Assembly (NCBI GenBank): GCA_048940925.1
Contig: JBHLOC010000025.1
Coordinates: 10,907-74,906, forward strand
Length of the DNA stretch: 64,000 nucleotides
From: Promethearchaeota archaeon
GTDB lineage: Archaea > Asgardarchaeota > Lokiarchaeia > Sigyniarchaeales > SOKP01
Direction of reading: 5' to 3'
Positions 5,619 to 28,589 of the stretch are shown here, piece by piece (the first letter of the stretch is position 1; each line of letters opens with the position of its first letter). The translations under genes were made by a program, and so were the position numbers. Under the pieces are notes generated by a model that searched no databases, was not told the origin of the DNA, and saw nothing but the letters and a program-made list of their open reading frames with translations.

Positions 5619-5619
5619 T

Positions 5620-6504
5620 TTAAGGAGTTTCACCTTCCATCTTTTCCATTGCTTTACATTTTTGTTTATATCGTTCTAATGAAATTTTTTCTTGCTCAAC
5701 AAACCTATTAGCACGACTTAAAAGATTATCAAAATCTACTACATGACCATCAACATCTGGTCCATCAACACAAGCAAAAAGTATTTCTCCAGTTTTAGTT
5801 GAGAATCGACATCCTCCACACATCCCTGTTCCATCAATCATTATTGTGTTTAAAGATACATAAGTTTTTACCTTAGGTAATCCTTCAATTCCACTAGTGA
5901 GAATAGAAACATTTTTCATCATAATTAATGGACCAATTGCGATAACAACACTAATTTTTTCTTTTTCTAACAAGTCTTTTAGAGGTTTAGTTACAAAGCC
6001 CTTTATTCCCTCAGTCCCATCATTTGTACAAGTAATCACTCTATCACTAACGACATTCATTTTGTCTTTCCAAAATAATAATTCACGTGTTTTTGCACCT
6101 ACAATTGATATAACCTTATTACCTGCATTTTTCAATTCTTTTGCCTGTGGAAAACATTCAGCAATACCCACTCCCCCTCCAACTATAACAATGGGATTTT
6201 CATATTTTTCAATATGAATTTTATTTCCAAGTGGTCCAATCACATCTAAAATTTCATCATCGACATTCTTATGTGAAAGCAATAGTGTAGATTTTCCAAC
6301 TACTTGAAAAACTATAGTGATAATTCCTTTTTCGCTACTATAATCGGCAATAGTAAGAGGAATTCTCTCACCGGTCTCATTTATTCGAATTAATACAAAA
6401 TTACCAGCAAATGCCTTTTTCGCAATTAAAGGGGCCCTTACATCAATTTCAAATAAAGTTCCACTATTTCCAAGCTGAATTTTTTTTAGTATCTTGTAGG
6501 GCAT
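5620..6504 (-). CDS. nfnA: NfnA/SudB-type FAD/NAD-binding [2Fe-2S] subunit
   Basis: GERIPLTI, GPLG, GGGVG and MIDGTGMCGGCR..ACVDGP (Asp/Cys-ligated 2Fe-2S). Abuts the NfnB-containing fusion gene. Confidence 0.88.
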   Translation of the reverse strand: MPYKILKKIQLGNSGTLFEIDVRAPLIAKKAFAGNFVLIRINETGERIPLTIADYSSEKGIITIVFQVVGKSTLLLSHKNVDDEILDVIGPLGNKIHIEKYENPIVIVGGGVGIAECFPQAKELKNAGNKVISIVGAKTRELLFWKDKMNVVSDRVITCTNDGTEGIKGFVTKPLKDLLEKEKISVVIAIGPLIMMKNVSILTSGIEGLPKVKTYVSLNTIMIDGTGMCGGCRFSTKTGEILFACVDGPDVDGHVVDFDNLLSRANRFVEQEKISLERYKQKCKAMEKMEGETP

Positions 6505-6604: not shown

Positions 6605-6622
6605 ATGGGAATTACTTCCCCT
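6605..6622. promoter_or_regulatory. Palindromic operator candidate, copy 1 (ATGGGAATTACTTCCCCT), between divergent nfnA and guaA
   Basis: GGGA-N6-TCCC core. Near-identical sites occur at 12148 and 18308. Confidence 0.55.
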
Positions 6623-11375: not shown

Positions 11376-11499
11376 TTTTTGTTGGAACCTAAAATATTAG
11401 CCCAAAAGGTAAAGAAAGACCTCTTTATAAATTCCAGAATAAATCTCTTTTGTTACAAACTTATAATCTAATGATTCCTGAGATTTAATACCTAATTTC

Positions 11500-12110
11500 C
11501 ATTTATGACAAATAATTTTAATAAGCTGAGAGATTTAATCAATATCTTGTCGATCTACTAAATTTGCTTTAAATTTTCTTACTCCTGCGAATATTTGTTT
11601 AATATCAATACTAAATTTACTTGAGAAATTACATTAGATCGAAGATGGTATTTCTGATTTCTTAATTTTCTCACCGAAAAATTTTGCTTTCATCGCAGCT
11701 GTGAATGGAGCTCTTGCCATGGGTGCCCCATATGTAAAATGCATAGCCATGGCAAGAGCTTTAAAAATTTGGGTCATATTTACTTTTCCGTCTTCTATAG
11801 CAATTGATGGAATGGTGGTATTGAGATTTTTCTTTTTAATCATATCAATATGTCAAACTTCAAGTGCTTCTAAGTATGCTGTTGGAATTGAGCTATCGTT
11901 AATCATACTTATGGGACTCATCCCTGTACCTCCATCAGCACCATCAAAAGTCATTCCGTTAACCTTTCCATCATCATTTAATCTTAATGTTTATGTTGTT
12001 GCTACTGTTCTACATGCACCTGCTTTATAAAAATTTATTTTAGTTCCACTTGAGCGTAATTGATCAATTTCATCATAATTTGATTGATAAGACTCCATTG
12101 AAAATATAGT
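11500..12110 (-). pseudogene. Decayed FMN-binding glutamate-synthase-family gene
   Basis: One minus frame gives KAGACR..TFDGADGGTGMSP..IPTAYLE..QIFKALAM..MARAP..QIFAGVRKF..DRQD, with in-frame stops at 11991-3, 11853-5, 11634-6 and 11535-7. The 5' part is missing. Confidence 0.8.
11709..11760. repeat. 14-bp perfect inverted repeat flanking an inverted 24-bp segment
   Basis: AGCTCTTGCCATGG (11709-11722) and CCATGGCAAGAGCT (11747-11760). Confidence 0.9.
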
Positions 12111-12147: not shown

Positions 12148-12165
12148 ATGGGAATTGTTACCCAT
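12148..12165. promoter_or_regulatory. Palindromic operator candidate, copy 2 (ATGGGAATTGTTACCCAT)
   Basis: Lies upstream of the glutamate-synthase-like remnant and just downstream of a minus-strand TTTATAT box. Confidence 0.55.
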
Positions 12166-12396: not shown

Positions 12397-13230
12397 TTAA
12401 ATTAGTTGACTACAGTAATTCATAGCAAAAGGTCTTTTAGAAATTGGTTTAATAGCTTTAAAAGGTTTTTTTCTAATAATTTCGAGGGAAATATTGAATG
12501 TTTTACAGAAATCTTTTATATAAAAGTCGATTTCTTTCTGTTCTTCTTCTAAAAGTTCAGAAACTTGTGCCCCAACACCTAACCAACCTTCGACATTTTT
12601 ATCCGTTCTAAGATAAATAACGCCTCTATGAATCCCTGTTCCTAATTCTGTTCCACAAATAGGCTGTTGATTCTCAATAATTGTGCCATTTGGTAAGAAT
12701 TTTAGACCAAGCACAATAATTTTACCACCTGCCATATACTCGCCCAAGAAATCTTTAGCTGTGCCACCGATTATTAAAATAGGAAATTGATTTTTATATT
12801 CTTTCATATGGATACCAACTCTATAACCCACGTCTCCCTTGACATAGATTTTTCCACCTCTTGAAGATAATCCGATAACATCCCCTCCATCTCCATAAAT
12901 TATTAATGTTCCTTCATTCATTGTATTTCCTGTTTGATCCTCACAATTCCCAATAACACTAATTTTAGGACCATCCATAAAAATTCCTAAATCATTACCT
13001 GGAACTCCATTAATAATTATTTCTACATTTCCTTGTAAAGCTGCACCTATAAATCTCTGCCCACAAACATTGTTTAATACAATATTTTTACAATTATTTT
13101 TAACGGCATCATTGATCATAGAATTTAATTCTCTATAGTCAATTGGTTCTCCATTTGGGGCAGCATTTATCTCTAGAGGTTCTATTCTATCCATTTCAAA
13201 ATTTTTAACTTCAATATCATTCATTATCAT
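12397..13230 (-). CDS. gltB3: Glutamate synthase GXGXG (domain 3) subunit
   Basis: GQRFIG, GVPGNDLG, GNTMNEG, GYRVGIHMK and FLGEYMAGG beta-helix repeats. ATG 13230 follows a GGTGA SD. Confidence 0.9.
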   Translation of the reverse strand: MIMNDIEVKNFEMDRIEPLEINAAPNGEPIDYRELNSMINDAVKNNCKNIVLNNVCGQRFIGAALQGNVEIIINGVPGNDLGIFMDGPKISVIGNCEDQTGNTMNEGTLIIYGDGGDVIGLSSRGGKIYVKGDVGYRVGIHMKEYKNQFPILIIGGTAKDFLGEYMAGGKIIVLGLKFLPNGTIIENQQPICGTELGTGIHRGVIYLRTDKNVEGWLGVGAQVSELLEEEQKEIDFYIKDFCKTFNISLEIIRKKPFKAIKPISKRPFAMNYCSQLI

Positions 13231-13234
13231 AGTT

Positions 13235-14755
13235 TTATTCACCAGCATGTTTTACTCCTAAAATATCCGCAATATGCGGATTTGGACCAATATACCTTAA
13301 TCGGTCTCTATTTGAGCGAAGAGATTCCACAGAATCTATTCCCATCGCTCCTAAAACTTCCTTTAATTCTTCATTCCAAGAATGAAATAAATTTATGATT
13401 CTTTTTTTTGAAACATCAATATCTAATCTCTTCACTAAAATTTCTTGCTGTGTTGCGATACCCCATGAACAAAGACCTCTAAAGCATTGCTGGCAGACTC
13501 GACATCCCATTGCTATTAATACCGGTGTACAACACATAGCTATATCTGCCCCTAATGCAATAGCTTTGATCAAATCGGCAGAATATCTAATAGAGCCCCC
13601 AGCAATTAATGTTATCTCTTCTCTCAATCCTTCTTGCCTTAACTTTTCATCAACAACTGCAATGGCTATCTCAATAGGGATCCCTGCATGATCTCTAATA
13701 ATTCTTGGCGCAGCACCAGTACCCCCTCTAAAACCATCAATTGTTAGGAAATCGGCACCACCTTTAACTATTCCTATCGCAATTGGGGCTGAATTATGTA
13801 CTGCCGCAATCTTTACTCCCACAGGAACCTTATATCTTGTTGCTTCTTTTAATGCTGCTATTAATTGAGCTAAATCCTCTATTGAATAAATATCATGATG
13901 AGGATATGGAGATAATGCATCACTTCCCTGTGGAATCATACGCGTTTGCGAAATTAAATTGCTTACTTTTTCACCTGGGAGATGGCCACCGTGCCCAGGT
14001 TTTGCTCCTTGCCCTATTTTGATTTCTAGACCTGCTGCATTATGTAAATAATTAATATCCACACCAAATCTTCCTGATGCGACTTCAGTAATAATATTTG
14101 GAGCATATTCATAAAAATCTGGATGTAGACCCCCTTCTCCTGAACCTGCTACAATATTTAATTCTTTTACTGCTTGATATATTGCTTGACATGCATTGTA
14201 GCTAATTGACCCTAAAGACATATGACCAACCATAATTGGCATATCTATTTCAAAATTAGGAAAGAGATTTGTCTTTAATGAAATATCGTTAATATCATCA
14301 TAATCACCTGAAAAATTAAGCTGCTTTAACTTTCGTCCAAATATTATTTTAGTTTCTATTGTCTCTCTCAATGGATCAATACTAGGATTTGTGACTTGGC
14401 AAGCGTCAAGAAGTAGGTCATCAAAGATGGATCTAATCGGTCTATCATTGCCCGTTGCTGAAAGTAAAACGCCTCCATTTCCTGATTGAGCCCAAATTAT
14501 ATTTCTAATTTTTCTAGTATAGTTACCATGTTGGGGTAAATAAGCATCATTTTGAACAATGCGTATCGCCTTTCCTGGGCACATAACTACACATCTTTGG
14601 CACGCTACGCATTTATTGTCATCAGCAATTATTCGTTCTCCATTGAAATATAGTACTCCAAATGAACAATTATTTACACATCTTTTACATTTCTTACAAT
14701 TCTCTTGATTAATATTTACTCTATAATAAGGGAGAATCTCATGTACTATAGCCAA
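13235..14755 (-). CDS. gltB2: Archaeal glutamate synthase FMN-binding subunit with N-terminal 2x[4Fe-4S]
   Basis: CKKCKRC..C, CVACQRC..CP, MSLGS, GEGG, EVASGRFG, EIKIGQGAKPGHGGHLPGEKV, SPYPHHDIYSIEDL, DGFRGGTGA and C..CQQC..GLC. Confidence 0.93.
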   Translation of the reverse strand: MAIVHEILPYYRVNINQENCKKCKRCVNNCSFGVLYFNGERIIADDNKCVACQRCVVMCPGKAIRIVQNDAYLPQHGNYTRKIRNIIWAQSGNGGVLLSATGNDRPIRSIFDDLLLDACQVTNPSIDPLRETIETKIIFGRKLKQLNFSGDYDDINDISLKTNLFPNFEIDMPIMVGHMSLGSISYNACQAIYQAVKELNIVAGSGEGGLHPDFYEYAPNIITEVASGRFGVDINYLHNAAGLEIKIGQGAKPGHGGHLPGEKVSNLISQTRMIPQGSDALSPYPHHDIYSIEDLAQLIAALKEATRYKVPVGVKIAAVHNSAPIAIGIVKGGADFLTIDGFRGGTGAAPRIIRDHAGIPIEIAIAVVDEKLRQEGLREEITLIAGGSIRYSADLIKAIALGADIAMCCTPVLIAMGCRVCQQCFRGLCSWGIATQQEILVKRLDIDVSKKRIINLFHSWNEELKEVLGAMGIDSVESLRSNRDRLRYIGPNPHIADILGVKHAGE

Positions 14756-14757
14756 TT

Positions 14758-15951
14758 TTATACCTCCATTTTAGATAAATTATGTTTTATCAATGGTATT
14801 TCAAGACCATTTTTAATTAATCCTTTCCCCTGTTTAGCTATAACAACAGATCCACTCTTCGGATGCCAAATATCAAGCAAATCGAATTTATCGTCATCAA
14901 GCATCAACCTTCTAAAGGAGGATTCTTCACTGCTCATATACACAGTATTCTTATCTTCACTAATTCCAACTACTAAAGGCCGTAGTTTTTTTCTATCAGA
15001 TAATCCTATCATAGTAGGAATAGGATCTGAATAACCAACAACAATAGAAAACGGTCCATTCAACATAGCACTTCTATAAGTTGCTCTTATATTTTTGTAT
15101 ATTACTTGAGTTTTATTATCTAATTTTTCAATTTCTTCATATAATGGTGGTGCTAAAGCAATAGCAACGAGAGGTATTGGGATTTTATGTTTACGGCATA
15201 ATAAGTCAAACAGATACGCGATAACTTCTGTGTCAGTAAAAAGAGTACATTTATATCCAAACGAATCTAAGTACCTTTTATTTGTTCCATAGGATGTTAT
15301 CTCACCATTATGAACCACCGAACAATTTAATAGATTAAATGGATGTGCCCCGCCCCACCATCCAGGAGTATTTGTTGGAAATCTTGAATGTGCCAACCAC
15401 ATATACGCTTTATATTCTGAAATTTTATAAAAATCTGCAATTTCATATGACCAGCCATTACCTTTAAAAACACCCACATCTTTGCCAGATGACATCACAA
15501 ATGCATTTTCAATATTAGCATTGATAGCCATTACTATTTGGACTATTTTTTCATCGTTATCTTCGTTATTATAGTTTTCTGGATCAAAGAACACTCTCCA
15601 GATTATCGGAGGATTGATCACCTCAGAATGCATCTTTGTTGGTATAGGCTCCGATTTGATTATTTTACCATTTTTTTCCAAATATTTTAGGGTATTTGAT
15701 TTTGCATTTTCATTGTCAAAAAGAAAATGAAATGCATAATAATTTTTATATTCAGGATAAATTCCGTATCCCGCAAAACCCGCACCAAGACCATTTTCTC
15801 TCTCCTTCAAAATACATAACATTTCAATTACTTTATCCCCTGAAACTCTATTCCCATCAGTGTTTATAAAACCAGATATTCCACATCCATCAAATACTCG
15901 CTGATTTCTATATTGTGCGGGTAAAGATGTATAATTTTCCCATCTCATCAC
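14758..15951 (-). CDS. gltB1: Glutamate synthase class II (Ntn) glutamine amidotransferase subunit
   Basis: Short leader then DG-CGISG, ERENGLGAG, HSRFPTNT, GGAHPF, HNGEI and DTEV. Confidence 0.92.
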   Translation of the reverse strand: MMRWENYTSLPAQYRNQRVFDGCGISGFINTDGNRVSGDKVIEMLCILKERENGLGAGFAGYGIYPEYKNYYAFHFLFDNENAKSNTLKYLEKNGKIIKSEPIPTKMHSEVINPPIIWRVFFDPENYNNEDNDEKIVQIVMAINANIENAFVMSSGKDVGVFKGNGWSYEIADFYKISEYKAYMWLAHSRFPTNTPGWWGGAHPFNLLNCSVVHNGEITSYGTNKRYLDSFGYKCTLFTDTEVIAYLFDLLCRKHKIPIPLVAIALAPPLYEEIEKLDNKTQVIYKNIRATYRSAMLNGPFSIVVGYSDPIPTMIGLSDRKKLRPLVVGISEDKNTVYMSSEESSFRRLMLDDDKFDLLDIWHPKSGSVVIAKQGKGLIKNGLEIPLIKHNLSKMEV

Positions 15952-15954
15952 TTT

Positions 15955-17313
15955 TCACTCTCTCATGTTTGAAGAATCCGGTTTTATGTTTTCATTCTCT
16001 ATAATATTAAATAGTTTTTTCAAATCTCCAACTTTAGGTTTATTAGTTTCTAACCCTACTCTATTACGGGCTGATTTTGATAATAAACCAATAATTCCTT
16101 TCTGATAAAAGGAATAGAATTCACGTGCATATCCTTTTGTAGCATATCCTCGCTCTGTCGCGAGATTACGTAAAATTGAAAAAATTTCAATCATACCAAC
16201 TCTCATAGGACAAAGCTCATAACATAAATAACAATCAAGACACAGCCAAATTGACTGATCAGATATGACCTCTTCAACTCTTCCTTCAAGGAGCTTATAG
16301 ACAATTTCGCTTGGTCTGAATTCGGTCAATTTTGATATGATACAGTCATCGTCACATGCTCTACATGAATAACATTTGAATAAGAAATTAGGATCGAAAT
16401 ATTTTCTTATTTCCCTATTTTTTGCTTTAATATCTTCAATTTTTTTAAAAAGTGATTTGACTTGCGTTCTGTGGTACTTTTTCATCAATTCTCGAATATT
16501 AATCTCTAGGGCAATACATAATAATTCTGAATAATATAACACGGGAATATCGTAATTACGATCTTCTTTTTTTAAATCTTGTTGCAAATGATCAAATTGA
16601 ATAAAACACTGAGGACAACACACAACAATACAATCAATCTTATTCTCCTTCATACTTAATAATTTCGCATTAATTATTTCTAATGATAAATTTGGACTCC
16701 CAGCTCTCCCAAGACTTCCTCCACAACATTCCATTTTAAATTCATAATCAATACTTTGAGCACCTAAATCTCTAATCAAATCATCAAATAAAGTTGGCTC
16801 AAGTGGATCATCAGTCTGTACTTTATTGCTTGGTCTAAGGAAGTGACAACCATAAAAAACCGCAATCCTTAACCCCGTTAATGGAAACTTTAAATTATCT
16901 TTTATCGTCTCCCTTCTGAATTTGAAAACGAATTCGACCAAATGATAAATGTTACAATCTCCACGGACTTTAAGATCAATTTTATCCAAATATTCATTGA
17001 TCTTCTCTTTTAAATGATGATCTTCTTCAATTTCACCTTTCACTTTTTTGAAGGTTGTAAAACACCCATTACAAGGAGTTAAAATAGCTTTATTCTCCAT
17101 CTCAGCAAGACTAAGATTTCGAGCTGCCGTTAAATAGAACAACAATTTATTAGAATTTTTAATCCCATTCGGCTCAGGACAACAAGAAAACTTTGAATTT
17201 TCAGTAAAAGCAATCCCTAAATAATCTAATACATTTCTTATTGAAACTTCTATAAAAGGAAGCCGATATGTTATAGTGCATCCTGGGAATAAGACTATCT
17301 CATGATTAATTAT
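15955..17313 (-). CDS. HdrB-HdrC fusion (two CCG domains + [4Fe-4S] domain)
   Basis: FPGC..CCPEP..TPCNGC, FYGCH..CCG..CCPQC, then CYSCRAC..C and CLDCYLC..CP. The first CCG half lies upstream of the ORF-track TTG (17145). The frame is open back to ATA 17313, behind a GAGGT SD. Confidence 0.85.
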   Translation of the reverse strand: MINHEIVLFPGCTITYRLPFIEVSIRNVLDYLGIAFTENSKFSCCPEPNGIKNSNKLLFYLTAARNLSLAEMENKAILTPCNGCFTTFKKVKGEIEEDHHLKEKINEYLDKIDLKVRGDCNIYHLVEFVFKFRRETIKDNLKFPLTGLRIAVFYGCHFLRPSNKVQTDDPLEPTLFDDLIRDLGAQSIDYEFKMECCGGSLGRAGSPNLSLEIINAKLLSMKENKIDCIVVCCPQCFIQFDHLQQDLKKEDRNYDIPVLYYSELLCIALEINIRELMKKYHRTQVKSLFKKIEDIKAKNREIRKYFDPNFLFKCYSCRACDDDCIISKLTEFRPSEIVYKLLEGRVEEVISDQSIWLCLDCYLCYELCPMRVGMIEIFSILRNLATERGYATKGYAREFYSFYQKGIIGLLSKSARNRVGLETNKPKVGDLKKLFNIIENENIKPDSSNMRE

Positions 17314-17503
17314 TTTAAACCTCTTTAATTATATTAAGTTATTTTAAAAGATTTTGAAAGATTTATGTAAATAGGCTAAATAAATAACATAATTTTACTT
17401 AGCTAAATGATCTACCTTATTTACTCCTATTCTAGTTATATTTATTTGAGTCTTTATCATAATTTTTTTCACTTTTTTTCTTAACTTCAAATAAAAACTA
17501 AAC

Positions 17504-18013
17504 TTATTCGTAGATAAGAAGCTTTTTCGTCCTATCCATTTTTTGATTATTATTTACAGCTGAAAATACATATGATTCATATTCATTTTTCTTGAGTTTT
17601 TCTAAATGGGATCCTTCTAAAATTAATTCATGACTATCTAATTCTGATACGAATAAGTCCATACACGCAATTCCAGTATCACAATTCCAATTAGGTTCTT
17701 TATGTTTCGGCCCAAAAATCCTTCCAAACGGTATTGAACTATGTTCGCATATATGGATAATATTCCTGCCATAAGAATATTCCTCTCCACATTCTGGACA
17801 TTCGATCATTTTTGAAATTAATTTGCTTCTTTGGTCTAGATTACTTCCAAATGCAAAATAATTAACTTCTAGAAAGTTATCGCACCTCCATTTATAGTCA
17901 TATCTTTCATCTTTGGAGCTCAATCCGCTTTTATTGGCAATTTCTTCACAATCTTGGCATATTTTTCTGTCGTAGTAAATCTTTTTTCCACAAAATTGAC
18001 ATTTCAATGACAT
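17504..18013 (-). CDS. Uncharacterised tandem Zn-ribbon protein ending in LIYE (paralog of 22034..22435)
   Basis: CQFCG..CQDCE and a second unit CPECG..HICE. KWRC/NWNC motifs. GGAGA SD-like motif upstream. Confidence 0.75.
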   Translation of the reverse strand: MSLKCQFCGKKIYYDRKICQDCEEIANKSGLSSKDERYDYKWRCDNFLEVNYFAFGSNLDQRSKLISKMIECPECGEEYSYGRNIIHICEHSSIPFGRIFGPKHKEPNWNCDTGIACMDLFVSELDSHELILEGSHLEKLKKNEYESYVFSAVNNNQKMDRTKKLLIYE

Positions 18014-18033
18014 TTTTATTCAATTCTCCAAAT

Positions 18034-18258
18034 TTAGATTGCTTTGTATAGACGTGGGCGTTTATTATAATATATCTCGAGTTTTTCAGGCATTTTTCTC
18101 TTAATTCTGTTTATAACATGCACAACTCCATTTCTGTTATGCCCATATCCCATAGCAGCTGCCCACTCCGCTGCTGTTGAAACTCCAATCTCCTTTAGTT
18201 TATCCAAGCATATCTCTTCCCACGTTTTTAGTACTATTTGATTCTCTATTTTTATCAC
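18034..18258 (-). CDS. Small putative winged-helix DNA-binding protein
   Basis: Basic helical protein, TWEEICLDKLKEIGVSTAAEWAAAMGY..VINRIKRK..KRPRLYK. Start uncertain (TTG 18300, GTG 18258 or ATA 18249). Confidence 0.55.
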   Translation of the reverse strand: MIKIENQIVLKTWEEICLDKLKEIGVSTAAEWAAAMGYGHNRNGVVHVINRIKRKMPEKLEIYYNKRPRLYKAI

Positions 18259-18307
18259 TCCATACTTTTTATTAACAATTTTAAGTGCATTTCTAATCAA
18301 AATAATG

Positions 18308-18325
18308 ATGGGAATCAGATCCCAT
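18308..18325. promoter_or_regulatory. Palindromic operator candidate, copy 3 (ATGGGAATCAGATCCCAT)
   Basis: Immediately downstream of a minus-strand TTATATATAA TATA-like box, at the head of the wHTH / Zn-ribbon / hdrBC / gltB run. Confidence 0.6.
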
Positions 18326-18742
18326 TATATTATATAATAAGATAAACAAGCTCCTTAATAAAGTTTAGGATTAAAAACTAAACATTATTGCATTATTTAG
18401 CAAATTTTCTTAAATAGATCGACAAAATTATATTCATCTCTAAATAAAAAATTATAAAAAAAAATGATTAATCTGAATAATGTTCATTCTAAAAATATCT
18501 TTAATTTAAATTTTATGGAAATACTCTAAAAAAATTTCAATAAACGGAGGTTTTTATTTAATTCCTTTTAGTGGAGTAATAAACCTAAAAATTTTTAGTT
18601 TTTTGAAAAATAATTCTAAAGTTATCATGACCTAATGATTTCATGAATTAAAATTTCCAAGTTTATGCTTTTGAGAGCAATATTGCATTTTTAATAAAAA
18701 CAAATTGAAAATAACAACCATTCAACAAATCAAATCGTCAAT

Positions 18743-18777
18743 TGATATTATAAAACAATCTGATATTATAAAACAAT
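18743..18777. repeat. Tandem direct repeat, 17 bp x2 (TGATATTATAAAACAAT)
   Basis: Exact copies at 18743-18759 and 18761-18777. Confidence 0.85.
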
Positions 18778-18905
18778 ACAAACGAAAAATAAAGAATTAA
18801 ATATCAAAGTATCAAATTTGGGTTAAATACGTCTATTTCTACTGAATTTTAATATCGATATTACAGAAATAGAAAAAAAATAACTTAATAAAGGATCAAA
18901 AGATT

Positions 18906-19937
18906 ATGAGTCTTCTCAAATACATTATTAGAAGAGTGGTTGTTATGATTCCAGTATTATTCGGAGTATTGACTTTAACATTTATTCTTAATAGATTAAT
19001 GCCAGGGGATCCGATTGCTGCTCGATTATCTGCTGCGGGAATACATAATCCCGCACAGGGTCTTTATCAACAGATGAAGTGTCAGCTTGGTCTCTGTGAT
19101 CCAATAATAGTTCAATATTTTCGATATGTAGAGGAATTATTCACAGGTCAATGGGGAGTTTCTGTATCTATTGTTCGAAATGAACCTGTCTGGGATCTCA
19201 TAATGGAAAGAATGCCATTGACAATAGATTTAACAGTATTTTCTGTGGCAATATCGTCCTTTTTAGGAATTAAGGCAGGAGTTATTTCAGCTGTTAATAG
19301 GAATAAAACTATTGATACAGTAGTGAGAGGACTTGCTTTATTAGGTGTAGCTATTCCTGTATTTTTTCTAGGAATGTTATTACAATACACATTCGGTTAT
19401 GTTGTAAAAATCTTCGAGCCTACAGGATATTTGAGTATTAACATTGAAAATCCCCCATTTGTGACCGGATTTATTATAATCGATGCTATATTAGCAGGTC
19501 AGTTTTATGTTGTTATCGATTATCTATGGCATTTATGTTTACCTGTGTTTTGTCTGTCATTTATTAGTCTCGCCACTATTACACGTCAGACTCGTTCGAG
19601 CATGTTAGAAGTGTTAGAGATGGATTATGTCAGAACTGCAAGAGCAAAAGGATGTGAAGAAAAAGTAGTAATCCATTCTCATACCTTGAGAAACGCTTTA
19701 ATTCCGACTGTGACTATTATAGGATTAAGTATAGCTGGTTTATTAGGAGGAGCTGTTCTTACAGAAACTACTTTTGGATTAAATGGAATGGGGAATCTTT
19801 TTGTTAATGCGATTCTCTTATATGACTATTGGGTGTTAAATGCCCTTGTATTTATGATAACAATCATTTTCATATTTGCAACTTTGCTAACTGATGTAAT
19901 ATACGCAATTTTAGACCCCAGAATACGATACAGATAA
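18906..19937 (+). CDS. dppB: Peptide/nickel ABC transporter permease (DppB/OppB)
   Basis: MPGDP, QYFRY and an intact EAA loop TRSSMLEVLEMDYVRTARAKG. Also GAVLTETTF and LDPRIR. Confidence 0.92.
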   Translation: MSLLKYIIRRVVVMIPVLFGVLTLTFILNRLMPGDPIAARLSAAGIHNPAQGLYQQMKCQLGLCDPIIVQYFRYVEELFTGQWGVSVSIVRNEPVWDLIMERMPLTIDLTVFSVAISSFLGIKAGVISAVNRNKTIDTVVRGLALLGVAIPVFFLGMLLQYTFGYVVKIFEPTGYLSINIENPPFVTGFIIIDAILAGQFYVVIDYLWHLCLPVFCLSFISLATITRQTRSSMLEVLEMDYVRTARAKGCEEKVVIHSHTLRNALIPTVTIIGLSIAGLLGGAVLTETTFGLNGMGNLFVNAILLYDYWVLNALVFMITIIFIFATLLTDVIYAILDPRIRYR

Positions 19938-20029
19938 TGGTTTTTATTCACAAAAAGAGATATTTTTTACCTTCTCATCTTATTTACATTCTGCTATATC
20001 AAATTAATTATTTGTAGAAAATTATTAAT

Positions 20030-20250
20030 TAAATCATTTCAATTAACTGCAATAATTGTTAGATCAAATCCATCAGGCAAGTCGAATGTATCTTAATAGC
20101 ATTTAATCTCTAGTATTTCCAAGCTTCCTCTTGACACAAAATATTAGTTTCCACTAAAGCCTCAATTGACTAAACCGAAAAGTTGTCATTTCCTTTTGGC
20201 AGAAGCACCAATAAAAGCAATAGATTTAGGGTAAAAAATTTCTCAAAATA
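20030..20250 (-). pseudogene. Remnant of ADP-forming acyl-CoA synthetase alpha subunit (N-terminal CoA-binding domain)
   Basis: Minus frame reads FYPKSIAFIGASAKRK*QLFGLVN*GFSGN*YFVSRGSLEILEIKCY*DTFDLPDGFDLTIIAVN*, with five stops. Confidence 0.7.
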
Positions 20251-20355
20251 ATTAATCTGCTTCACAGATGGAATAGATAATTTTGTAACTTAAATTTAAC
20301 CCATCTTTATGATTGATTAAATAAAAATATAAATTTTGCATCAAATGTATTAATT

Positions 20356-21213
20356 ATGCGTTCTGAGGACTATTATCAAGTTATTCAAGAAAAAGATTAT
20401 TTAGTTATAATTAGGGAGCAACTTGACAAGATTGATTCTCGCTATCTCACTAAGTATACTAATCTCTTCTTGGTTATAGGAAATAAGGAGTGTTTATTAA
20501 TAGATACCGGGTGTGGATTCTTTCCTCTCAAACCTATTATAAACAAATTTCTGAACGGTAAAAAATTATATGTGGTTAATACTCATTCCCATTTTGATCA
20601 TGTGGGAGGAAATGGTGAATTTGATACGATTTATATCCACGAAAATGAGGAAGCCTTCGTAAAAAATGAACTTGATTTAACTTTTCTTAAAGAAGCTCCA
20701 AATACTATAGTGAATCGCTTCAATAATACAAATTTGATTTTACCACCATCAAAAAAGATTATTCCTTTGAAAGGAGGTGAGATCTTCGAACTAGGAGGGA
20801 TCGATGTTAGATGGATTCATAACGCAGGACATTCTACAGGTTCTATTTCTTTATACACAGATAAAGGAGAACTTTTTCCTGGTGATCTAGTGCATTATGG
20901 TGCTATCCCACTTCCACCTAAGGATGATCTATCCTTTATAACAGAAAGTGTTGAAAAACTAATTAAATTATACGATGAAAAAAACATTAATGAAATATAT
21001 CCTTCCCATGAAGATTATGGTGTCTCTAAAGACATATTAACAGAATTATTGAGTCTTCTTAAAAACATCGATGATTTCTGGGAAAATCGGATACCGAATA
21101 AATTTAATAATGCTTGGGAAATCGATATGGGCGGATTTCATCTAATGTTAAAGGTTGGAATAAAAGAACGTAAAGATTTCCGAACTAAAGTGAGACTCTT
21201 AAAAGAGGAATAA
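20356..21213 (+). CDS. MBL-fold metallo-hydrolase
   Basis: LIDTG, THSHFDHVGG, GHSTGS, GD and PSH metal-binding motifs. Confidence 0.88.
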   Translation: MRSEDYYQVIQEKDYLVIIREQLDKIDSRYLTKYTNLFLVIGNKECLLIDTGCGFFPLKPIINKFLNGKKLYVVNTHSHFDHVGGNGEFDTIYIHENEEAFVKNELDLTFLKEAPNTIVNRFNNTNLILPPSKKIIPLKGGEIFELGGIDVRWIHNAGHSTGSISLYTDKGELFPGDLVHYGAIPLPPKDDLSFITESVEKLIKLYDEKNINEIYPSHEDYGVSKDILTELLSLLKNIDDFWENRIPNKFNNAWEIDMGGFHLMLKVGIKERKDFRTKVRLLKEE

Positions 21214-21250
21214 AGTTTATAAAAAATTGAAGTTTTTCCAATAAGTATTT

Positions 21251-21754
21251 TTATGTATTATTTACTACTTTTTCTTTTTTTTTTAAAGCGGTAAAAGAAC
21301 TAACTTCTTTAATGGTATTTAATACGAAATGAGTGTTGGTGTGCTCAACATATGGAGATTTATGAATATCCTTAATCATTTTACTTAATTCTTCTCGGGT
21401 TTTAAATCTCGCTAAAATAAGGGCATCATAAGTTCCTGTAATATCATACACACCAAAAACATTAGGGTTATCAGCAATCTTTTCTTCAACCTCAAACATT
21501 TTCCCCTTTGATATTGTTACCTCTATAATACCCATAATTTCATATCCTAACTTCTCAAAATTAATTTTAGCACCGTAATTTATGATAATACCTTTCTTTT
21601 CTAAATTCTCAACATGATTTTTAATTGTAACTGGTGATCCTACATCTAACTCTTTAGCAAGTTGGCGAAATGAAATTCTACTGTCTTCACTTAGTTTTTT
21701 TAGGATGTCAATATCTAAATCAGAAAAATCTTCATGGGTAGATTGCTGAGTCAT
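21251..21754 (-). CDS. Lrp/AsnC family transcriptional regulator
   Basis: LDIDILKKLSEDSRISFRQLAKEL HTH, plus the RAM domain VYDITGTYD. Confidence 0.92.
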   Translation of the reverse strand: MTQQSTHEDFSDLDIDILKKLSEDSRISFRQLAKELDVGSPVTIKNHVENLEKKGIIINYGAKINFEKLGYEIMGIIEVTISKGKMFEVEEKIADNPNVFGVYDITGTYDALILARFKTREELSKMIKDIHKSPYVEHTNTHFVLNTIKEVSSFTALKKKEKVVNNT

Positions 21755-21823
21755 AATAATAAAGAGTTATATATACATTATAAAAGTATGCAATTGTCCA
21801 TAGAAAAACTTAAGAATCGACCG

Positions 21824-21969
21824 AATGATCATTTTTTTCGACGACAAAAATTATCAAATTGTACGATCGATCACTTTATTTAAGTAATAATGATCATTTA
21901 TAACTGTTATTCTCCATTAATGTAAACATTTGAGCTAGAAAAAATTAAAATTTATATATGTACGATCAT
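21824..21969. promoter_or_regulatory. Cluster of (A/T)ACGATCAT / AATGATCATT motifs in the Lrp / Zn-ribbon-glnA divergent promoter
   Basis: AATGATCATT at 21824 and 21889, TGTACGATCGATCAC at 21860, TGTACGATCAT at 21959. Related motifs at 27000 and 36179. Confidence 0.5.
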
Positions 21970-22033
21970 ATCATTAATTATATAATTAAAAATTAGTGAA
22001 AATTCCTCTAAGTATAAAAAAGAAGATTTAGAT

Positions 22034-22435
22034 ATGAAAAAAATGCCATTAAAATGCCCTATATGTGGAAAAAAATATTATTATGATAGTAAAATTTGCC
22101 ATGAATGCGAAGATTATTCAAAATATAGTGGTTTGACAAATCAAGATGAGTATTATGTTCAAAAATGGAATTCTGGTGTTTTTTTAGGATTTGATTCCAT
22201 AACATTTGGAAGACAAAAAGCAGATAATTTATATATTAAAATTGCTTCTGAACCAAAATTCACGAAATTCAAATCCAGGAAAGACTATAAATGGAACTGT
22301 GAGTCAAATGTTAGATTTAGGAATTATATTACTCAAAAAGATCATCTTTATCAATTAAATGCGCTTAAGCATTTAACTACTGAAAATTCAAGGTTTTTTG
22401 GAAGAGATACTAATAATTCATTGATTTATGAATAA
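22034..22435 (+). CDS. Uncharacterised Zn-ribbon protein ending in LIYE (paralog of 17504..18013)
   Basis: LKCPICGKKYYYDSKICHECE..SGL..DEYY..KW..FL..FG aligns with the 17504 protein. Confidence 0.75.
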   Translation: MKKMPLKCPICGKKYYYDSKICHECEDYSKYSGLTNQDEYYVQKWNSGVFLGFDSITFGRQKADNLYIKIASEPKFTKFKSRKDYKWNCESNVRFRNYITQKDHLYQLNALKHLTTENSRFFGRDTNNSLIYE

Positions 22436-22535: not shown

Positions 22536-24038
22536 ATGACAAGTACTAAAGAAAGTTTTGTAAAAGGGATTATAGAACCAAGTGTAAACGCTGTAGAAGC
22601 AGCTAAAAAGATCCTCGAAGCGGAACAAGTAAAGTTCGTGTTATGTGCTTTTACAGATGTTCGAGGTATTTTTCAGAGTTTTAGCTCTCCTGTTCATCAT
22701 TTTTTAAAAGGAGATCAATATTTTGAAACGGGAATTGGTTTTGATGGGTCGAGTATACGAGGATTTAGAGAACTTCACACTAGTGATATGATTTTCTATC
22801 CTGATCCTCAAGCTTTATATATCCTTCCTTGGACGACCGGTTTTCAAAAAACTGCAGTTTTAATAGGAAATATACGTGAACCGTTCGGAAGTATAGAAGC
22901 TGCTGACTGTGATCCTAGAGGATATGTAGCGCAGCGTGCCATAGATAAAGCTTCAGAATTGGGCTATACATCTTACTTTGGACCTGAAATTGAATTTTTT
23001 GTTTTTAAGTCTATAGATCCAAGTAAGTTAGATTATGATATTTTTACCAGCCCAAAGGGAGGTGCAGGAGATAGTTGGGGCCCACCAAGAGTGAATCCCG
23101 TATCTCCCGAAACCGAGATTGGGGGGTATATATTAAGACCTAAAGAAGCATACTTTAGGAATCCTCCTGAGGATACTACTAATGGTTATCGTAACGATCT
23201 TACAAATACACTCGAAACAATGGGATATACCGTTGAGATGCATCACCATGAGGTCTCTACTAAAGGACAAGTTGAAATAAACTATCGTTATAGTGACCTA
23301 TTGGACACTGCGGATAAAGTTCAGATTTACAAGCTTGCTGCACGAAATATTGCTGCTAAATATGGATGGATTGCAACATTTATGCCAAAACCAATTTATT
23401 TAGATAATGCTAGTGGTATGCATGTTCATAATTCAATGTTCAAGGATGGTGAAAATGCTTTCTGGGATCCAGATGATGATTATGCTGAGATTAGTCAGGA
23501 ATGTAGGTATTATATTGGTGGCCTTCTCGAACATGCTGAAGCATTAACGGCGATATGTTGCCCAACAGTCAATTCATATAAACGATTAGTTCCTGGATTC
23601 GAGGCTCCTATTAATATTATGTATAGTCGAAGAAATAGATCAGCATTAATCCGAATTCCAGTGTATTTAAAAGGTGAAAAATACAAAAATAGAAGACGTA
23701 TAGAATATAGGGGAGTTGATCCCTCAACAAACTCTTACTTTGCTTTTGCGGCAATATTAACGGCAGGATTAGATGGAATTAAAAAGAAGATTGATCCTGG
23801 TGACCCTGTAGATAAGGATGTTTATGAAATGTCTGAATCAGAGAAAAAGTCTGCTGGTGTGAAACAATTACCAACAACTCTAAAAGATGCATTGGACATT
23901 ATGGAAACTGATTCAATATCAAAAGAAATTCTTGGATCTCATCTCTATGATGCCTTCGTAGAATACAAAACAAATGAATGGAATCAGTTTTGTCTTTATG
24001 TAACACCTTGGGAAATTATGAAATATTTAGACTACTAA
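22536..24038 (+). CDS. glnA: Glutamine synthetase type I
   Basis: FDGSSIRGF, GPEIEFF, HHHEV, TFMPKP, ASGMHVH, NSYKRLVPGFEAP, NRSALIRIP and RIEYR. Confidence 0.96.
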   Translation: MTSTKESFVKGIIEPSVNAVEAAKKILEAEQVKFVLCAFTDVRGIFQSFSSPVHHFLKGDQYFETGIGFDGSSIRGFRELHTSDMIFYPDPQALYILPWTTGFQKTAVLIGNIREPFGSIEAADCDPRGYVAQRAIDKASELGYTSYFGPEIEFFVFKSIDPSKLDYDIFTSPKGGAGDSWGPPRVNPVSPETEIGGYILRPKEAYFRNPPEDTTNGYRNDLTNTLETMGYTVEMHHHEVSTKGQVEINYRYSDLLDTADKVQIYKLAARNIAAKYGWIATFMPKPIYLDNASGMHVHNSMFKDGENAFWDPDDDYAEISQECRYYIGGLLEHAEALTAICCPTVNSYKRLVPGFEAPINIMYSRRNRSALIRIPVYLKGEKYKNRRRIEYRGVDPSTNSYFAFAAILTAGLDGIKKKIDPGDPVDKDVYEMSESEKKSAGVKQLPTTLKDALDIMETDSISKEILGSHLYDAFVEYKTNEWNQFCLYVTPWEIMKYLDY

Positions 24039-24276
24039 TTAAATTTTACTTATTTTTTGATAATTCAAATCTCCAAACCATAAAAATGAAAAAGAGATAT
24101 AATATTAGTTGCGAAAGGCATTTAGACGAGAAAAATTTTTTAATTGAATACTATTGTTGTGAATACTCTTGAGGCGAGATATTAATAAATAGGTGATTAA
24201 TTTATTTTTCAGATCAGAAACACAATTTAGAGTTAATTAGTCTGAAATAATCTAAACTTCAGGAAGGTTGAAAAGT

Positions 24277-24426
24277 GTGGCAGATAGTAAGAATTGTGAA
24301 AGAAATGTAATTAAACTCGAGAATTCGATGGCAATTACATTCACCCAAGAATGGTTTAATAAAACTCACTTGAAAGATATTTATATCAAGAATATTAGAA
24401 GCAAAATTGCGATAGAAAATGAATGA
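24277..24426 (+). CDS. Short AbrB/SpoVT-like ORF (49 aa), possibly a remnant
   Basis: MADSKNCERNVIKLENSMAITFTQEWFNKTHLKDIYIKNIRSKIAIENE resembles R-x-IKLGNS-x-AITLP-x-EW. GGAAGG SD-like motif; overlaps the start of the next gene. Confidence 0.4.
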   Translation: MADSKNCERNVIKLENSMAITFTQEWFNKTHLKDIYIKNIRSKIAIENE

Positions 24427-25006
24427 ATTAGAAAATAATCACACGATAAATGACAGGATAACTATTGCAATAGATGAGCAAACAAAACAAATATTAAATC
24501 AGTTAAATAATCACTCGGAGAGTTCTCGATCTGAAACAATAAGAAAAGCAATTAAATTTTATCATAAATTTAAGAAAGTTTTTGATCAAAAAGAAAAGGG
24601 GGTATCTGCTCAGGTAAACACTTACTTAGAATTACTTTCTAATGGAGAACATATTATTTTAGATGTAGATCATTATCTAACATTTTTAAAATTTATTGAA
24701 AATTCCCCGAATAAAGATCAGTTTGATGATTTCAATAAATCAATTGGTAGGGCTCATGCAGAAGAATTTTCTCATGATCTTAATATAACTACAGTCCAAA
24801 AAGTAGTAGAACGCCTTGAAGCATGCAATTTTTTCAAAATAATTAAAGATTCATCTAACAAATGTACCCTACTTTTAGGATCTGACATTCAAAAGAACTT
24901 TATTAAGACTTTTTTAGAAGAAGTCTTAAAAGGTATGGGTTTTAAAGTAAGTATTAACGAAGGATTTTCTAAATTAAAGATAATTATAGAGGATTTTTCA
25001 ATTTAG
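24419..25006 (+). CDS. CopG/ribbon-helix-helix family regulator with C-terminal ligand-binding-like domain
   Basis: RITIAIDEQT..SRSETIRKAIKFY RHH, followed by GEHIILDVDH, HAEEF and RLEACNFF. Confidence 0.78.
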   Translation: MNELENNHTINDRITIAIDEQTKQILNQLNNHSESSRSETIRKAIKFYHKFKKVFDQKEKGVSAQVNTYLELLSNGEHIILDVDHYLTFLKFIENSPNKDQFDDFNKSIGRAHAEEFSHDLNITTVQKVVERLEACNFFKIIKDSSNKCTLLLGSDIQKNFIKTFLEEVLKGMGFKVSINEGFSKLKIIIEDFSI

Positions 25007-25284
25007 AATTCTTCATTCTTTTAAATACAATCTTCAGGATTTTCAAATTGATATATATAATTTTCTCTGCTGCTGTTCTTCGATAAATAACGCTATATTT
25101 TAACTTTGGTTCGAATGTAATCTCAAGTTGATTATTCTCTTCATTATCTTTCATCCCCGAATTCGATCTATTGTCCAATCTAAGCTGTTATTATAAATTA
25201 CGTCATTTTGATTTTTTCGCTCACTGATTTGAAAACATCCAAAGTATTGTAAGTACCTAAATAAAGAAAAAAATTACTTTTGAA

Positions 25285-25626
25285 CTATAAAATATCGTCT
25301 CCCTTTTCTCTCGTTCTTATTCTTATTGCGGTTTCGATAGGCATAATAAAGATTTTTCCATCCCCAGGTTTTCCTGTTTGGGCTTTTTCAATAATAGTAT
25401 CTACAATTTCATCAATATTTATTTTCTCACTCACTACAATCTCAAGTTTTAATTTATCAATCCATTCTATGCAATATTTACCAGACCTATCTACCAGTTT
25501 TATTCCACGCTGGTGTCCATGACCTTTTACTTTATGGATACTCATACCTTTTATGTCTTTTTCAAATAATCCAGATTTAATTGCTTCTAATTTCTCCGGT
25601 CGTATAAAACACTCTATTTTTTTCAT
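25285..25626 (-). CDS. glnK: P-II nitrogen regulatory protein
   Basis: MKKIECFIRPEKL, KGHGHQRG, QTGKPGDGKIF and IRIRT. Directly downstream of amt. Confidence 0.93.
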   Translation of the reverse strand: MKKIECFIRPEKLEAIKSGLFEKDIKGMSIHKVKGHGHQRGIKLVDRSGKYCIEWIDKLKLEIVVSEKINIDEIVDTIIEKAQTGKPGDGKIFIMPIETAIRIRTREKGDDIL

Positions 25627-25644
25627 CTTATTTTTATACCTCCA

Positions 25645-26844
25645 TTATGCTTTTTCTCCGTGGATTGAAATATCTATACCTACGTATTCTTCTTCTTCAG
25701 ATGCTCTCAAACCAATTAGTTTATCGATCACTTTCGCAATTACCCAAGTTATTACAAAAGTATATCCAATTGTCGCTATAATTCCTACAGTTTGAATCCA
25801 TACTTGTCCAGGGTTGCCTGATATTAATCCTGTAGCCCCCACACTTGCAAAAATTCCGGTAGCAATCGCGCCCCAAATACCTCCCCATCCATGAATAGCC
25901 CACGCATCTAAAGATTCATCAATTTTCGATTTTGAACGCCAAGAAAGTATACCATAACAAATTATTGCAACCACAGCCCCGATTATCAATGCGACCCACG
26001 GTTGAACAAAACCAGCAGCAGGAGTAATTGCGACCAGCCCCGCTAAACCACCCGTTGCTAATCCAAGAGTACTAAATTTTCCCGTTTTATAATATTCTAT
26101 AATCATCCAAACTAAGGCTGCTACACTCGCCGCTAATTGTGTATTAAACATAGCTAATACAGCGGTACTGTCTGCAGCTAAAGCACTCCCCCCATTAAAC
26201 CCAAACCATCCTAACCAAAGTAGTCCCATTCCTAGTAATACATTAGGAATATTTGAAGGTTCTATCGATTCTTCTTGATATCCTTTCCTTGGCCCAATTA
26301 CCAGGGCAACTGCTAAGGAGGCAAATCCTACATTTACATGCACAACGGTACCTCCAGCGAAATCCAGAGCTCCTAGAAAACCTAACCACCCACCATCTCC
26401 CCAAACCCAATGGGCTATAGGAGAATATACTATTATCAGCCAGATTGAGATAAATATCATGAATGCTTTAAAATTAACTCTCTCTGCGAAAGGACTTGCT
26501 ATAATCGCTACAGTAATTATTGCAAACATCAATTGAAACGCCATATATAAAAGATGTGGTATTGTATCAGAATATACTGGATAGGCTTCTGTTCCTACTC
26601 CGAAAAGTGCAAGGAAATTAAAGCCTCCAATAAATCCACCACCCATATCGGGAGCAAAAGCCAAACTATAGCCAATTATGAACCAACCAACTGTTACTAT
26701 TAATATTGAGACAAAACACATTGCCATCATATTTATAATATTCTTCTTACGTAGCAAACCCCCATAAAAGAATGCTAACCCCGGAGTCATAATAAAAACT
26801 AACCCAGTACATATCAAGATAAAAGATATATCTCCACTTGACAA
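25645..26844 (-). CDS. amtB: Ammonium transporter
   Basis: PGLAFFYGG, AHWVWG, DFAGGTVVH, GWFGFNGGS and DAWAIHG. Confidence 0.96.
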   Translation of the reverse strand: MSSGDISFILICTGLVFIMTPGLAFFYGGLLRKKNIINMMAMCFVSILIVTVGWFIIGYSLAFAPDMGGGFIGGFNFLALFGVGTEAYPVYSDTIPHLLYMAFQLMFAIITVAIIASPFAERVNFKAFMIFISIWLIIVYSPIAHWVWGDGGWLGFLGALDFAGGTVVHVNVGFASLAVALVIGPRKGYQEESIEPSNIPNVLLGMGLLWLGWFGFNGGSALAADSTAVLAMFNTQLAASVAALVWMIIEYYKTGKFSTLGLATGGLAGLVAITPAAGFVQPWVALIIGAVVAIICYGILSWRSKSKIDESLDAWAIHGWGGIWGAIATGIFASVGATGLISGNPGQVWIQTVGIIATIGYTFVITWVIAKVIDKLIGLRASEEEEYVGIDISIHGEKA

Positions 26845-27236: not shown

Positions 27237-28589
27237 ATGATTGAAAAAGACGATCCAAAAAGGAAAGAGATTTGTGATAAAGTAATAGAGAAGATTAAAG
27301 AAGAGGATATAAAATTTATTTATCTTCAATTTACTGATATCCATGGAATTATTAAATCTTTTGAAATAAACTCCAAGAGGATTGAGGATATTTTTGAAGT
27401 AGGTGAGAATTTCGACGGGAGTTCTATAACGGGTTACGGAGCGATTGAAGAGAGTGATAAAGTTGCACTTCCTGATCCTAGCACATTTTATCTTTTGCCT
27501 TGGAGAAAAGAAAATAAGGTTGCAAGGGTAATTTGTGATATCTATAAACCTGATGGAAAACGGTATGAAGGAGACCCTCGCAGAATATTACAAAGAGCTG
27601 TCAATAAAGCAAAAGAACTAGGTTATGATTACTATTGTGCTCCAGAAATGGAGTTCTTCATATTAACCCCAGATACCGAAAAAGCATTTAAGCCCTCAGA
27701 TATGAGAGGATATTTCGATTATGATCCATATGATGTTAACGAAATAATAAGGTATAGAATTGCAGAATATTGCGATGCAATGGGTATTTCTGCAGAGTGT
27801 GTACATCATGAAGTTGCATTTGGACAGCATGAGGTAGATTTCAGATATGATGAAGCAGTAAATACAGCAGATAACACAGTTACAATAAAAACGATAGTTA
27901 AAACTGTCTCGGCGCAACATAATTTATTAGGAACATTTATGCCTAAACCTTTTGATGGGATTAATGGATCAGGCATGCATGTACATCAATCTTTATGGAA
28001 TAATGGGAATAATATCTTTTATGATGAAAATGATAAAGATCATATTTCGATTATCATGAAAAGATGGATTGCAGGTCAATTAAAACACGCTATCTCGATG
28101 TGTGCTGTTTTAAGTAGTTGGCCTAATTCTTATAAGAGATTAGTTCCTGGATTTGAGGCTCCAGTTTATCTTGCTTGGGGTTTTAGGAATAGATCTCCTT
28201 TAATCAGGGTACCAGATTTTCATAATAAATCCACCGCAGCTAGATGTGAAATTCGTTGTCCAGATCCTGCTGGTAATCCTTATCTTCAATTTGCTGTTCT
28301 TCTCGCTTCAGGATTAGATGGGATTTTATCAGAGGAAATTGACATTCCTGAACCAACCGATAGAAATGTATATCATTTATCTTCAAAAGAAATGGAAAAA
28401 GAAGGTATTATTTCATTACCAGGGAGTCTTAGTGAAGCTTTAAAGTATTTTAGAGATTCAGAATTTATGAAGGAAGTTTTCGGAGAATTAGCATTTAAAA
28501 ACTACTATTATGCCAAATTGGAGGAATTTGATAAATACAGAGTCGTAGTGAGCGAATGGGAGAGAAATAGATATATAACTCATTTGTAG
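27237..28589 (+). CDS. glnA: Second glutamine synthetase (GSI-alpha-like)
   Basis: FDGSSITGY, APEMEFF, HHEVAFGQHE, TFMPKP, NGSGMHVHQS, NSYKRLVPGFEAP, NRSPLIRVP and CEIRCPDP. Confidence 0.93.
   Translation: MIEKDDPKRKEICDKVIEKIKEEDIKFIYLQFTDIHGIIKSFEINSKRIEDIFEVGENFDGSSITGYGAIEESDKVALPDPSTFYLLPWRKENKVARVICDIYKPDGKRYEGDPRRILQRAVNKAKELGYDYYCAPEMEFFILTPDTEKAFKPSDMRGYFDYDPYDVNEIIRYRIAEYCDAMGISAECVHHEVAFGQHEVDFRYDEAVNTADNTVTIKTIVKTVSAQHNLLGTFMPKPFDGINGSGMHVHQSLWNNGNNIFYDENDKDHISIIMKRWIAGQLKHAISMCAVLSSWPNSYKRLVPGFEAPVYLAWGFRNRSPLIRVPDFHNKSTAARCEIRCPDPAGNPYLQFAVLLASGLDGILSEEIDIPEPTDRNVYHLSSKEMEKEGIISLPGSLSEALKYFRDSEFMKEVFGELAFKNYYYAKLEEFDKYRVVVSEWERNRYITHL

Follow-up and report, generated by a model that had tools for sequence, protein, structure and literature searches.

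Two Zn-ribbon genes at ammonium assimilation loci

The window analysed here is a 64,000-nucleotide stretch of a Promethearchaeota archaeon genome affiliated with the Lokiarchaeia (assembly GCA_048940925.1, contig JBHLOC010000025.1, positions 10,907 to 74,906; host genome 4.8 Mb, 29.6% GC). It encodes two small paralogous putative Zn-ribbon proteins of 169 amino acids (positions 17504..18013 of the window, minus strand) and 133 amino acids (22034..22435, plus strand), located next to genes for glutamate synthase (GOGAT) and glutamine synthetase (GS). An earlier note, made from the sequence of this stretch, described a shared N-terminal pattern, LKCxxCGKKxYYDxKICxxCE-x5-SGL-x3-DExY-x2-KW-x4-FL-x6-FG, which is matched exactly by both open reading frames (ORFs); the two proteins share 50% identity over 56 amino acids (E 7e-17). 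Both also contain the second WNC motif that it reported (residues 109-111 of the longer and 87-89 of the shorter protein) and end in LIYE followed by a stop codon (17504..17518, minus strand, and 22421..22435, plus strand). The reported gene order was likewise reproduced. The 169-amino acid gene is co-oriented with and ends about 176 nt before the aligned hdrBC start of an hdrBC-gltB1-gltB2-gltB3 operon (12397..17328, minus strand), and the 133-amino acid gene ends 100 nt before a co-oriented glnA (22536..24038, plus strand). Each adjoins a gene for a DNA-binding regulator, which is a small winged helix-turn-helix (wHTH)-like gene (18034..18300, minus strand) 20 nt upstream of the start of the 169-amino acid ORF and an Lrp/AsnC regulator (21251..21754, minus strand) divergent from the 133-amino acid gene.

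The 133-amino acid protein belongs to class A of the family described below and consists of a C4 Zn ribbon, KWN and YKWNC repeats and the LIYE tail. The 169-amino acid protein, a long member of class B, contains two modules, a linker and the tail. Its first module (residues 3-46; 17876..18007, minus strand) has the arrangement CxxC-x10-CxxC ... KWRC, and its second (residues 70-111; 17681..17806, minus strand) the arrangement CxxC-SYGR-HxC-G-x-IF-WNC, with C72, C75, H87 and C89 forming a further putative Zn site that the earlier note had overlooked; modules of this second type are also fused to Lrp elsewhere in the genome. In a rough module tree of only 49 columns, module 1 is nested inside class A (class A and module 1 split from the rest with support 100/98) and module 2 falls among the B types. 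The 169-amino acid protein is thus, on this tree, a chimera of an A-type and a B-type module, which accounts for the N-terminal likeness of the two proteins, and the tail that they share therefore spans a deeper split than this likeness suggests. A similar C-terminal tetrapeptide occurs in only 3 of the 3222 ORFs of at least 150 amino acids in the genome, and since the tail is also kept in 96 homologous loci, the common ending is more than chance. Pairwise ratios of nonsynonymous to synonymous substitution rates (dN/dS) are 0.30-0.35 overall (long class B 0.30, class A 0.35), with lower values of 0.18-0.25 for the Zn module, and the span as a whole is 0.2-0.5; both ORFs are genuine genes under protein-level selection.

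A lineage-restricted family with a C-terminal glutamate

The family unit is defined by CxxC-x10-(CxxC or HxC) ... G-x-hydrophobic-F ... YxWNC, a variable and poorly folded linker that often includes a second YxWN, and a terminal L-hydrophobic-[YF]-E. Profile searches recovered 94 clusters at 50% identity, nearly all of 46-175 amino acids, with matches in 45 of 54 genomes of the host genus, 38 of 42 genomes of a second genus and a few others of the same Lokiarchaeia family. The 26 genomes examined from other families of the class gave no match, and in a sample of 151 genomes from the phylum every match was confined to the family. Named homologues are mostly labelled Promethearchaeota (Lokiarchaeia), together with single metagenome-assembled genomes labelled Thor- and Hodarchaeota. 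In agreement with the earlier note, which did not recognise the family, neither protein received a passing Pfam, NCBIfam, PDB or Atlas assignment, and Foldseek, VIA-wide, PDB sequence profiles and two Atlas look-ups returned generic Zn-ribbon likeness only. The closest models are DZR-type zinc ribbons (PF12773, PF18912), which share the CxxC-x10-CxxC spacing and match weakly (E about 1e-3), but the matches reach 17.6-19.8 bits against a cut-off of 27, and the SYGR, YxWNC and tail motifs lie outside those models. Fused forms longer than 203 amino acids were not found, which is weak evidence since the known Lrp fusions (~200 amino acids) sit at the limit of the search. AlphaFold2 (AF2) predicted the full 169-amino acid protein with a mean confidence (pLDDT) of 45 and the second module plus tail with 63 (81-87 for the first 30 module residues); one of the two runs used 78 sequences, and in both the tail had a pLDDT of about 51-55 and was unpacked from the module. 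The family is undescribed and lineage-restricted, with a strong but non-exclusive tie to GS, GOGAT and glutamate dehydrogenase (GDH) loci. An active mobile element was ruled out by its fixed loci in two genera and by dN/dS below 1.

The tail is strongly conserved. Across four classes, 95 of 99 tails of the form x[YF]X end in Glu, and 80 of 96 show strict hydrophobic-Tyr-Glu, the remainder having Phe at the penultimate position (P2) or K, R, T, S, A or N at P3; in one sub-clade the hydrophobic position is occupied by Lys or Arg (LKFE/LRFE). Among the 80 tails, Leu is encoded by six codons, the stop codons TAA, TGA and TAG occur 45, 22 and 13 times, and no conservation extends past the stop. The constraint is therefore on the protein end and not on the DNA, and a role of the tail or of WNC as a DNA motif was ruled out on the same grounds. 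An overlapping start codon within YE was also rejected, as no consistent downstream ORF exists.

Paralogous classes and their genomic context

The family comprises at least five paralogous classes. Class A precedes a GSI-alpha-type glnA in 31 loci of two genera with a gap of 25-100 nt, retains the tail in 30 of 31, and adjoins glnA also where Lrp is no longer adjacent. Class B directly follows the small wHTH-like gene in 53 loci and is itself followed by hdrBC-gltB1-3 or by a gene for a 550-amino acid glutamate synthase-like protein. In the GDH locus, the Zn module is fused to the N-terminus of an Lrp protein, where a paralogous Lrp has a receiver-like domain in the same slot, and tail-less free derivatives of the Lrp-fused module are also found there. 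In the host genome (G000, C85:41225-44796), the two Lrp paralogues, one with the receiver-like domain and one with the Zn module, flank a kinase/response regulator-like pair in the vicinity of GDH, which they adjoin together with a SudA-like gene. A third, degenerate paralogue in the same genome (C20:2155-2391), which like the Lrp fusion had been overlooked in the earlier note, lacks the first CxxC, contains YNWN, ends in IFIFE and lies between Fen1-linked and OB-fold genes. Across the family, Lrp mostly lies directly beside glnA in divergent orientation, and the wHTH gene can abut glutamate synthase genes, in both cases with no intervening Zn gene; the Zn-ribbon family is an accessory addition to these nitrogen loci.

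It was overlooked in the earlier note that the glnA beside the 133-amino acid gene is a GSI-beta-like copy, which adjoins class A in this genome only. The GSI-alpha glnA that is the usual downstream neighbour of class A, as in the 31 loci of relatives, lies at 27237..28589 (plus strand), and a block of the GSI-beta-like glnA, a ribbon-helix-helix regulator gene, glnK and amt (22536-26844) is inserted between it and the class A gene. The GSI-beta-like glnA block is also found nearby in two other genomes (G024 and G044). The best PDB matches of the product of the glnA at 27237 are GSI-alpha enzymes. Based on effector-site residues taken from PMC10799026, GSI-alpha has Ala69 at the position of the glutamine feedback Arg (Bacillus subtilis Arg62) in 30 of 30 aligned orthologues, and three of the five 2-oxoglutarate ligands are absent by alignment to the Methanosarcina-type enzyme; most of these ligands are likewise missing from all 30 orthologues. 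Since both the feedback Arg and three of five 2-oxoglutarate ligands are absent, the known metabolite controls of GSI-alpha are missing.

Several further genes were noted in the window. The HdrB-HdrC fusion (15955-17328, minus strand), which heads gltB1-3 in many relatives, aligns from 17328 and has no in-frame ATG, GTG or TTG until 17145, so that an ATA or ATT start is likely. A broken C-terminal remnant of the 550-amino acid glutamate synthase-like protein (PF01645), intact after class B in many relatives, is located at 11427-12098 (minus strand). A 919-amino acid fusion of an FrhB-like region and a SudA/GltD-like flavoprotein is encoded at 2874-5633 (minus strand); the SudA part stands alone in many relatives.

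Regulators and a conserved palindrome

The wHTH assignment of the small gene upstream of class B is by pattern and a weak Pfam HTH_18 match only, and its start may lie further downstream. It is preceded by a GGGA-N6-TCCC palindrome (18310..18323). An exact copy of this motif stands in front of the wHTH/class B unit in 51 of 53 loci, and 6 of the 10 unlinked wHTH paralogues of the second genus are also preceded by it. Many class A genes, relocated copies among them, have either the palindrome or a shorter variant in front of them. The palindrome is not enriched genome-wide (15 found vs 23 expected). Because it precedes several unlinked wHTH paralogues, the small wHTH protein probably binds it, and the palindrome would be the wHTH operator. 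As it travels with wHTH paralogues in other loci, the small wHTH is a good candidate replacement for NrpR, which was not found in the 100%-complete host genome. The wHTH and Zn families share their range, both being nearly confined to the same two genera, and GSI-alpha and PAN are family-wide; this shared range is only suggestive because the kin are not independent. The wHTH consensus ends in PRLYEA (last strand PR-L/Q-YEA-hydrophobic), with YKA in the window copy.

Further palindromes are located in the window at 6607-6620 before sudB/guaA and, with one mismatch, at 12150-12163 before the glutamate synthase-like remnant. In the intergenic region between Lrp and class A (21800-21975), several GATC-centred repeats (ATGATCAT, ACGATCG) were identified, and many class A promoters have TGATCAT or CGATCAT just behind the TATA box; both are possible Lrp sites. 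A lone oppB-like permease gene and a metallo-beta-lactamase-fold gene (18906-21213) separate wHTH and Lrp in the window, which are adjacent in most relatives.

Proposed role in nitrogen and glutamate metabolism

We propose, with a probability of about 40%, that the Glu-tailed proteins are accessory factors that modulate, in trans, a nitrogen/glutamate regulon specific to this lineage, the tail docking in a basic pocket and GS being the first candidate target. By their placement, class A would be co-transcribed with the GSI-alpha glnA, and class B with the wHTH gene and the glutamate synthase genes behind the conserved palindrome. The Zn-ribbon/YxWNC module may serve as a protein-interaction or input domain for HTH regulators. 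The tail, whose end resembles glutamate or 2-oxoglutarate, could enter a basic pocket in which the two carboxylates of its last Glu are recognised, and this docking would tune a target in glutamate metabolism, GSI-alpha before others. Such logic would resemble that of the TnrA/GlnR sensor tails or of sP26, without homology to either. A role as peptide-tail ligands of GS had already been raised in the earlier note and stays a candidate reading. A predicted complex of class A with GSI-alpha (full chain plus neighbouring N-domain and Zn) scored 0.00 with an uncertain partner fold and is evidence neither way.

Several observations weigh against this proposal. Adjacency to nitrogen genes can mean a shared promoter only. 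The tie to nitrogen genes suggested earlier holds in part: linkage to glnA and gltB is kept in two genera, but two classes with the same tail lie elsewhere, namely class C in a Fen1/RPA/RadA cluster (tail in 14 of 14 copies, first CxxC lost in 10 of 14) and class F before a PfkB-like kinase gene, and these tails outside nitrogen loci therefore point to a general partner rather than GS. Of the 53 class B copies, 40 carry the tail and 13 have lost it. Furthermore, the presence of the family is patchy, with many genomes encoding glnA, wHTH and gltB and no Zn genes, and genera devoid of the Zn family carry the same GSI-alpha, with the same residues absent in the orthologues examined.

By the features tested, the family is not among the HbYX activators, TnrA/GlnR or LysW. 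With the Bacillus regulators TnrA and GlnR, whose sensor tails bind GSI-alpha (PMC4335299), it shares a small protein encoded before a GSI-alpha gene and a flexible, conserved C-terminal tail. It differs in having no MerR-type DNA-binding domain (no HTH match of the window proteins in Pfam or NCBIfam) and no sequence likeness, and the GS encoded alongside does not have the Arg on which the feedback-inhibited state recognised by TnrA and GlnR depends. The cyanobacterial proteins IF7 and IF17 are small, lineage-restricted and partly disordered regulators of GS. Like the family, Methanosarcina sP26 is a small, lineage-restricted and partly disordered accessory protein of ammonium assimilation (bioRxiv 10.1101/2020.05.06.080432). 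Neither sP26 nor IF7/IF17 is homologous to the Glu-tailed family, which has a Zn module, many loci and an Lrp fusion.

In a broader and more speculative form, which we consider unlikely, NrpR and the metabolite control of GS would have given way in this Asgard family to a new circuit that links GS, GOGAT and GDH to nitrogen status. In it, a bare wHTH repressor would bind an NrpR-like operator, and the terminal Glu of the small Zn proteins would either mimic glutamate or 2-oxoglutarate on a tether or plug the 20S pocket without opening the gate.

Alternative explanations

The earlier note compared the tail to the hydrophobic-Tyr-X (HbYX) motif by which PAN, Cdc48 and PbaB dock on the 20S proteasome. 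Like these ligands and PI31, both window proteins have hydrophobic-Tyr-X at the extreme end of a flexible tail, but the residue that is constant in the family is the terminal Glu, the position that HbYX leaves free and in which a variable, non-acidic residue is expected. PAN and Cdc48 tails of the lineage end in S, V, K, R, T, A or I, and none of the 13 PAN tails from the family and 6 PAN/Cdc48 tails from the genome ends in Asp or Glu. HbYX docking relies on the terminal carboxylate, and ZYE and ZYD gave no activation of the mammalian 20S (PMC10349142). Gate opening of the 20S by the Glu tail is therefore unlikely, and action in the manner of PAN, Cdc48 or PbaB is not supported.

In a distinct and rather unlikely alternative, the tail would occupy the 20S alpha pocket as an HbYX-type ligand but leave the gate closed, serving as a competitor, tether or degron instead of an activator. 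The negative result with ZYE concerns activation and not binding (PMC10349142), 80 of the 96 tails have the strict form, and both alpha subunits of the host 20S keep the pocket lysine (K66 equivalent; EKIF and DKIF motifs). Penultimate Phe also occurs in the lineage's own PAN/Cdc48 tails (LFV, LFS, LFI), and since the lineage PAN ends in LFV, Phe at P2 does not argue against HbYX. A universal partner such as the proteasome would account for the tail in non-nitrogen classes, and one relocated class A copy (L034) lies ~5 kb from a PAN gene. These points are set against the constant acidic X, Lys or Arg at the hydrophobic position in a sub-clade, the lack of a ring ATPase or PAC2 fold, and the absence of proteasome genes among the immediate neighbours shown in other loci. 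For the oligomeric scaffold on which HbYX activators present several tails, the models obtained are low-confidence monomers only. A motif match is moreover insufficient, as PbaA has HbYX and yet did not bind the mature 20S (PMC3605417).

Binding of the tail to the module of the same chain or of another copy, where it would form a structural or autoinhibitory strand and might imitate the final strand of the wHTH protein, is also doubtful. The module motifs SYGR, G-x-F and YxWNC are retained along with the tail across widely differing linker lengths, class C retains the module motifs and tail after loss of Zn ligands, and the PRLYEA end of the wHTH consensus resembles the tail. However, neither AF2 run packs the tail on the module, the module occurs without the tail in Lrp fusions and some class B copies, and the Glu of the wHTH is not invariant.

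LysW is a Zn-ribbon carrier with a terminal Glu, and Pup is covalently attached via its terminal Glu. A comparable covalent attachment site is improbable for the Glu-tailed family, even though an N-terminal Zn ribbon and an invariant C-terminal Glu are encoded beside genes of gamma-glutamyl chemistry. LysW appeared only among non-significant fold and sequence matches (E 2-6), there is no match to the LysW model TIGR01206 and no EDWGE motif, and the proteins are not acidic (isoelectric points of 9.2 and 6.0 for the two window proteins). Likewise, there is no LysX/ArgX neighbour, RimK-family genes are on other contigs, and no ATP-grasp gene was recognised beside members.

Finally, cis-acting leader ORFs, in which the nascent C-terminal peptide would arrest ribosomes at the stop codon and so regulate the gene behind it, would fit members co-oriented directly before larger genes and conservation that peaks at the stop, but are very improbable given about a dozen tailed class B copies without an intact co-oriented gene after them, most tail-less class B copies within 20 nt of a glutamate synthase-like gene, and gaps to the next gene that vary from 0 to several hundred nt.

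Implications

The weight of these findings for Lokiarchaeia is limited by the narrow range of the family, mainly two genera, and by its patchy presence. To our knowledge, neither of these genera has been cultured, and no paper on nitrogen regulation in Lokiarchaeia was found in the literature searched. A match to HbYX, as this family cautions, does not by itself predict proteasome activation. The Zn family, the wHTH protein and the palindrome provide parts for recombinant-protein tests, from genomes that apparently lack NrpR and encode a GSI-alpha that has neither of the known allosteric controls. The invariant C-terminal Glu tail would, if the proposed role is true, represent a new docking motif.

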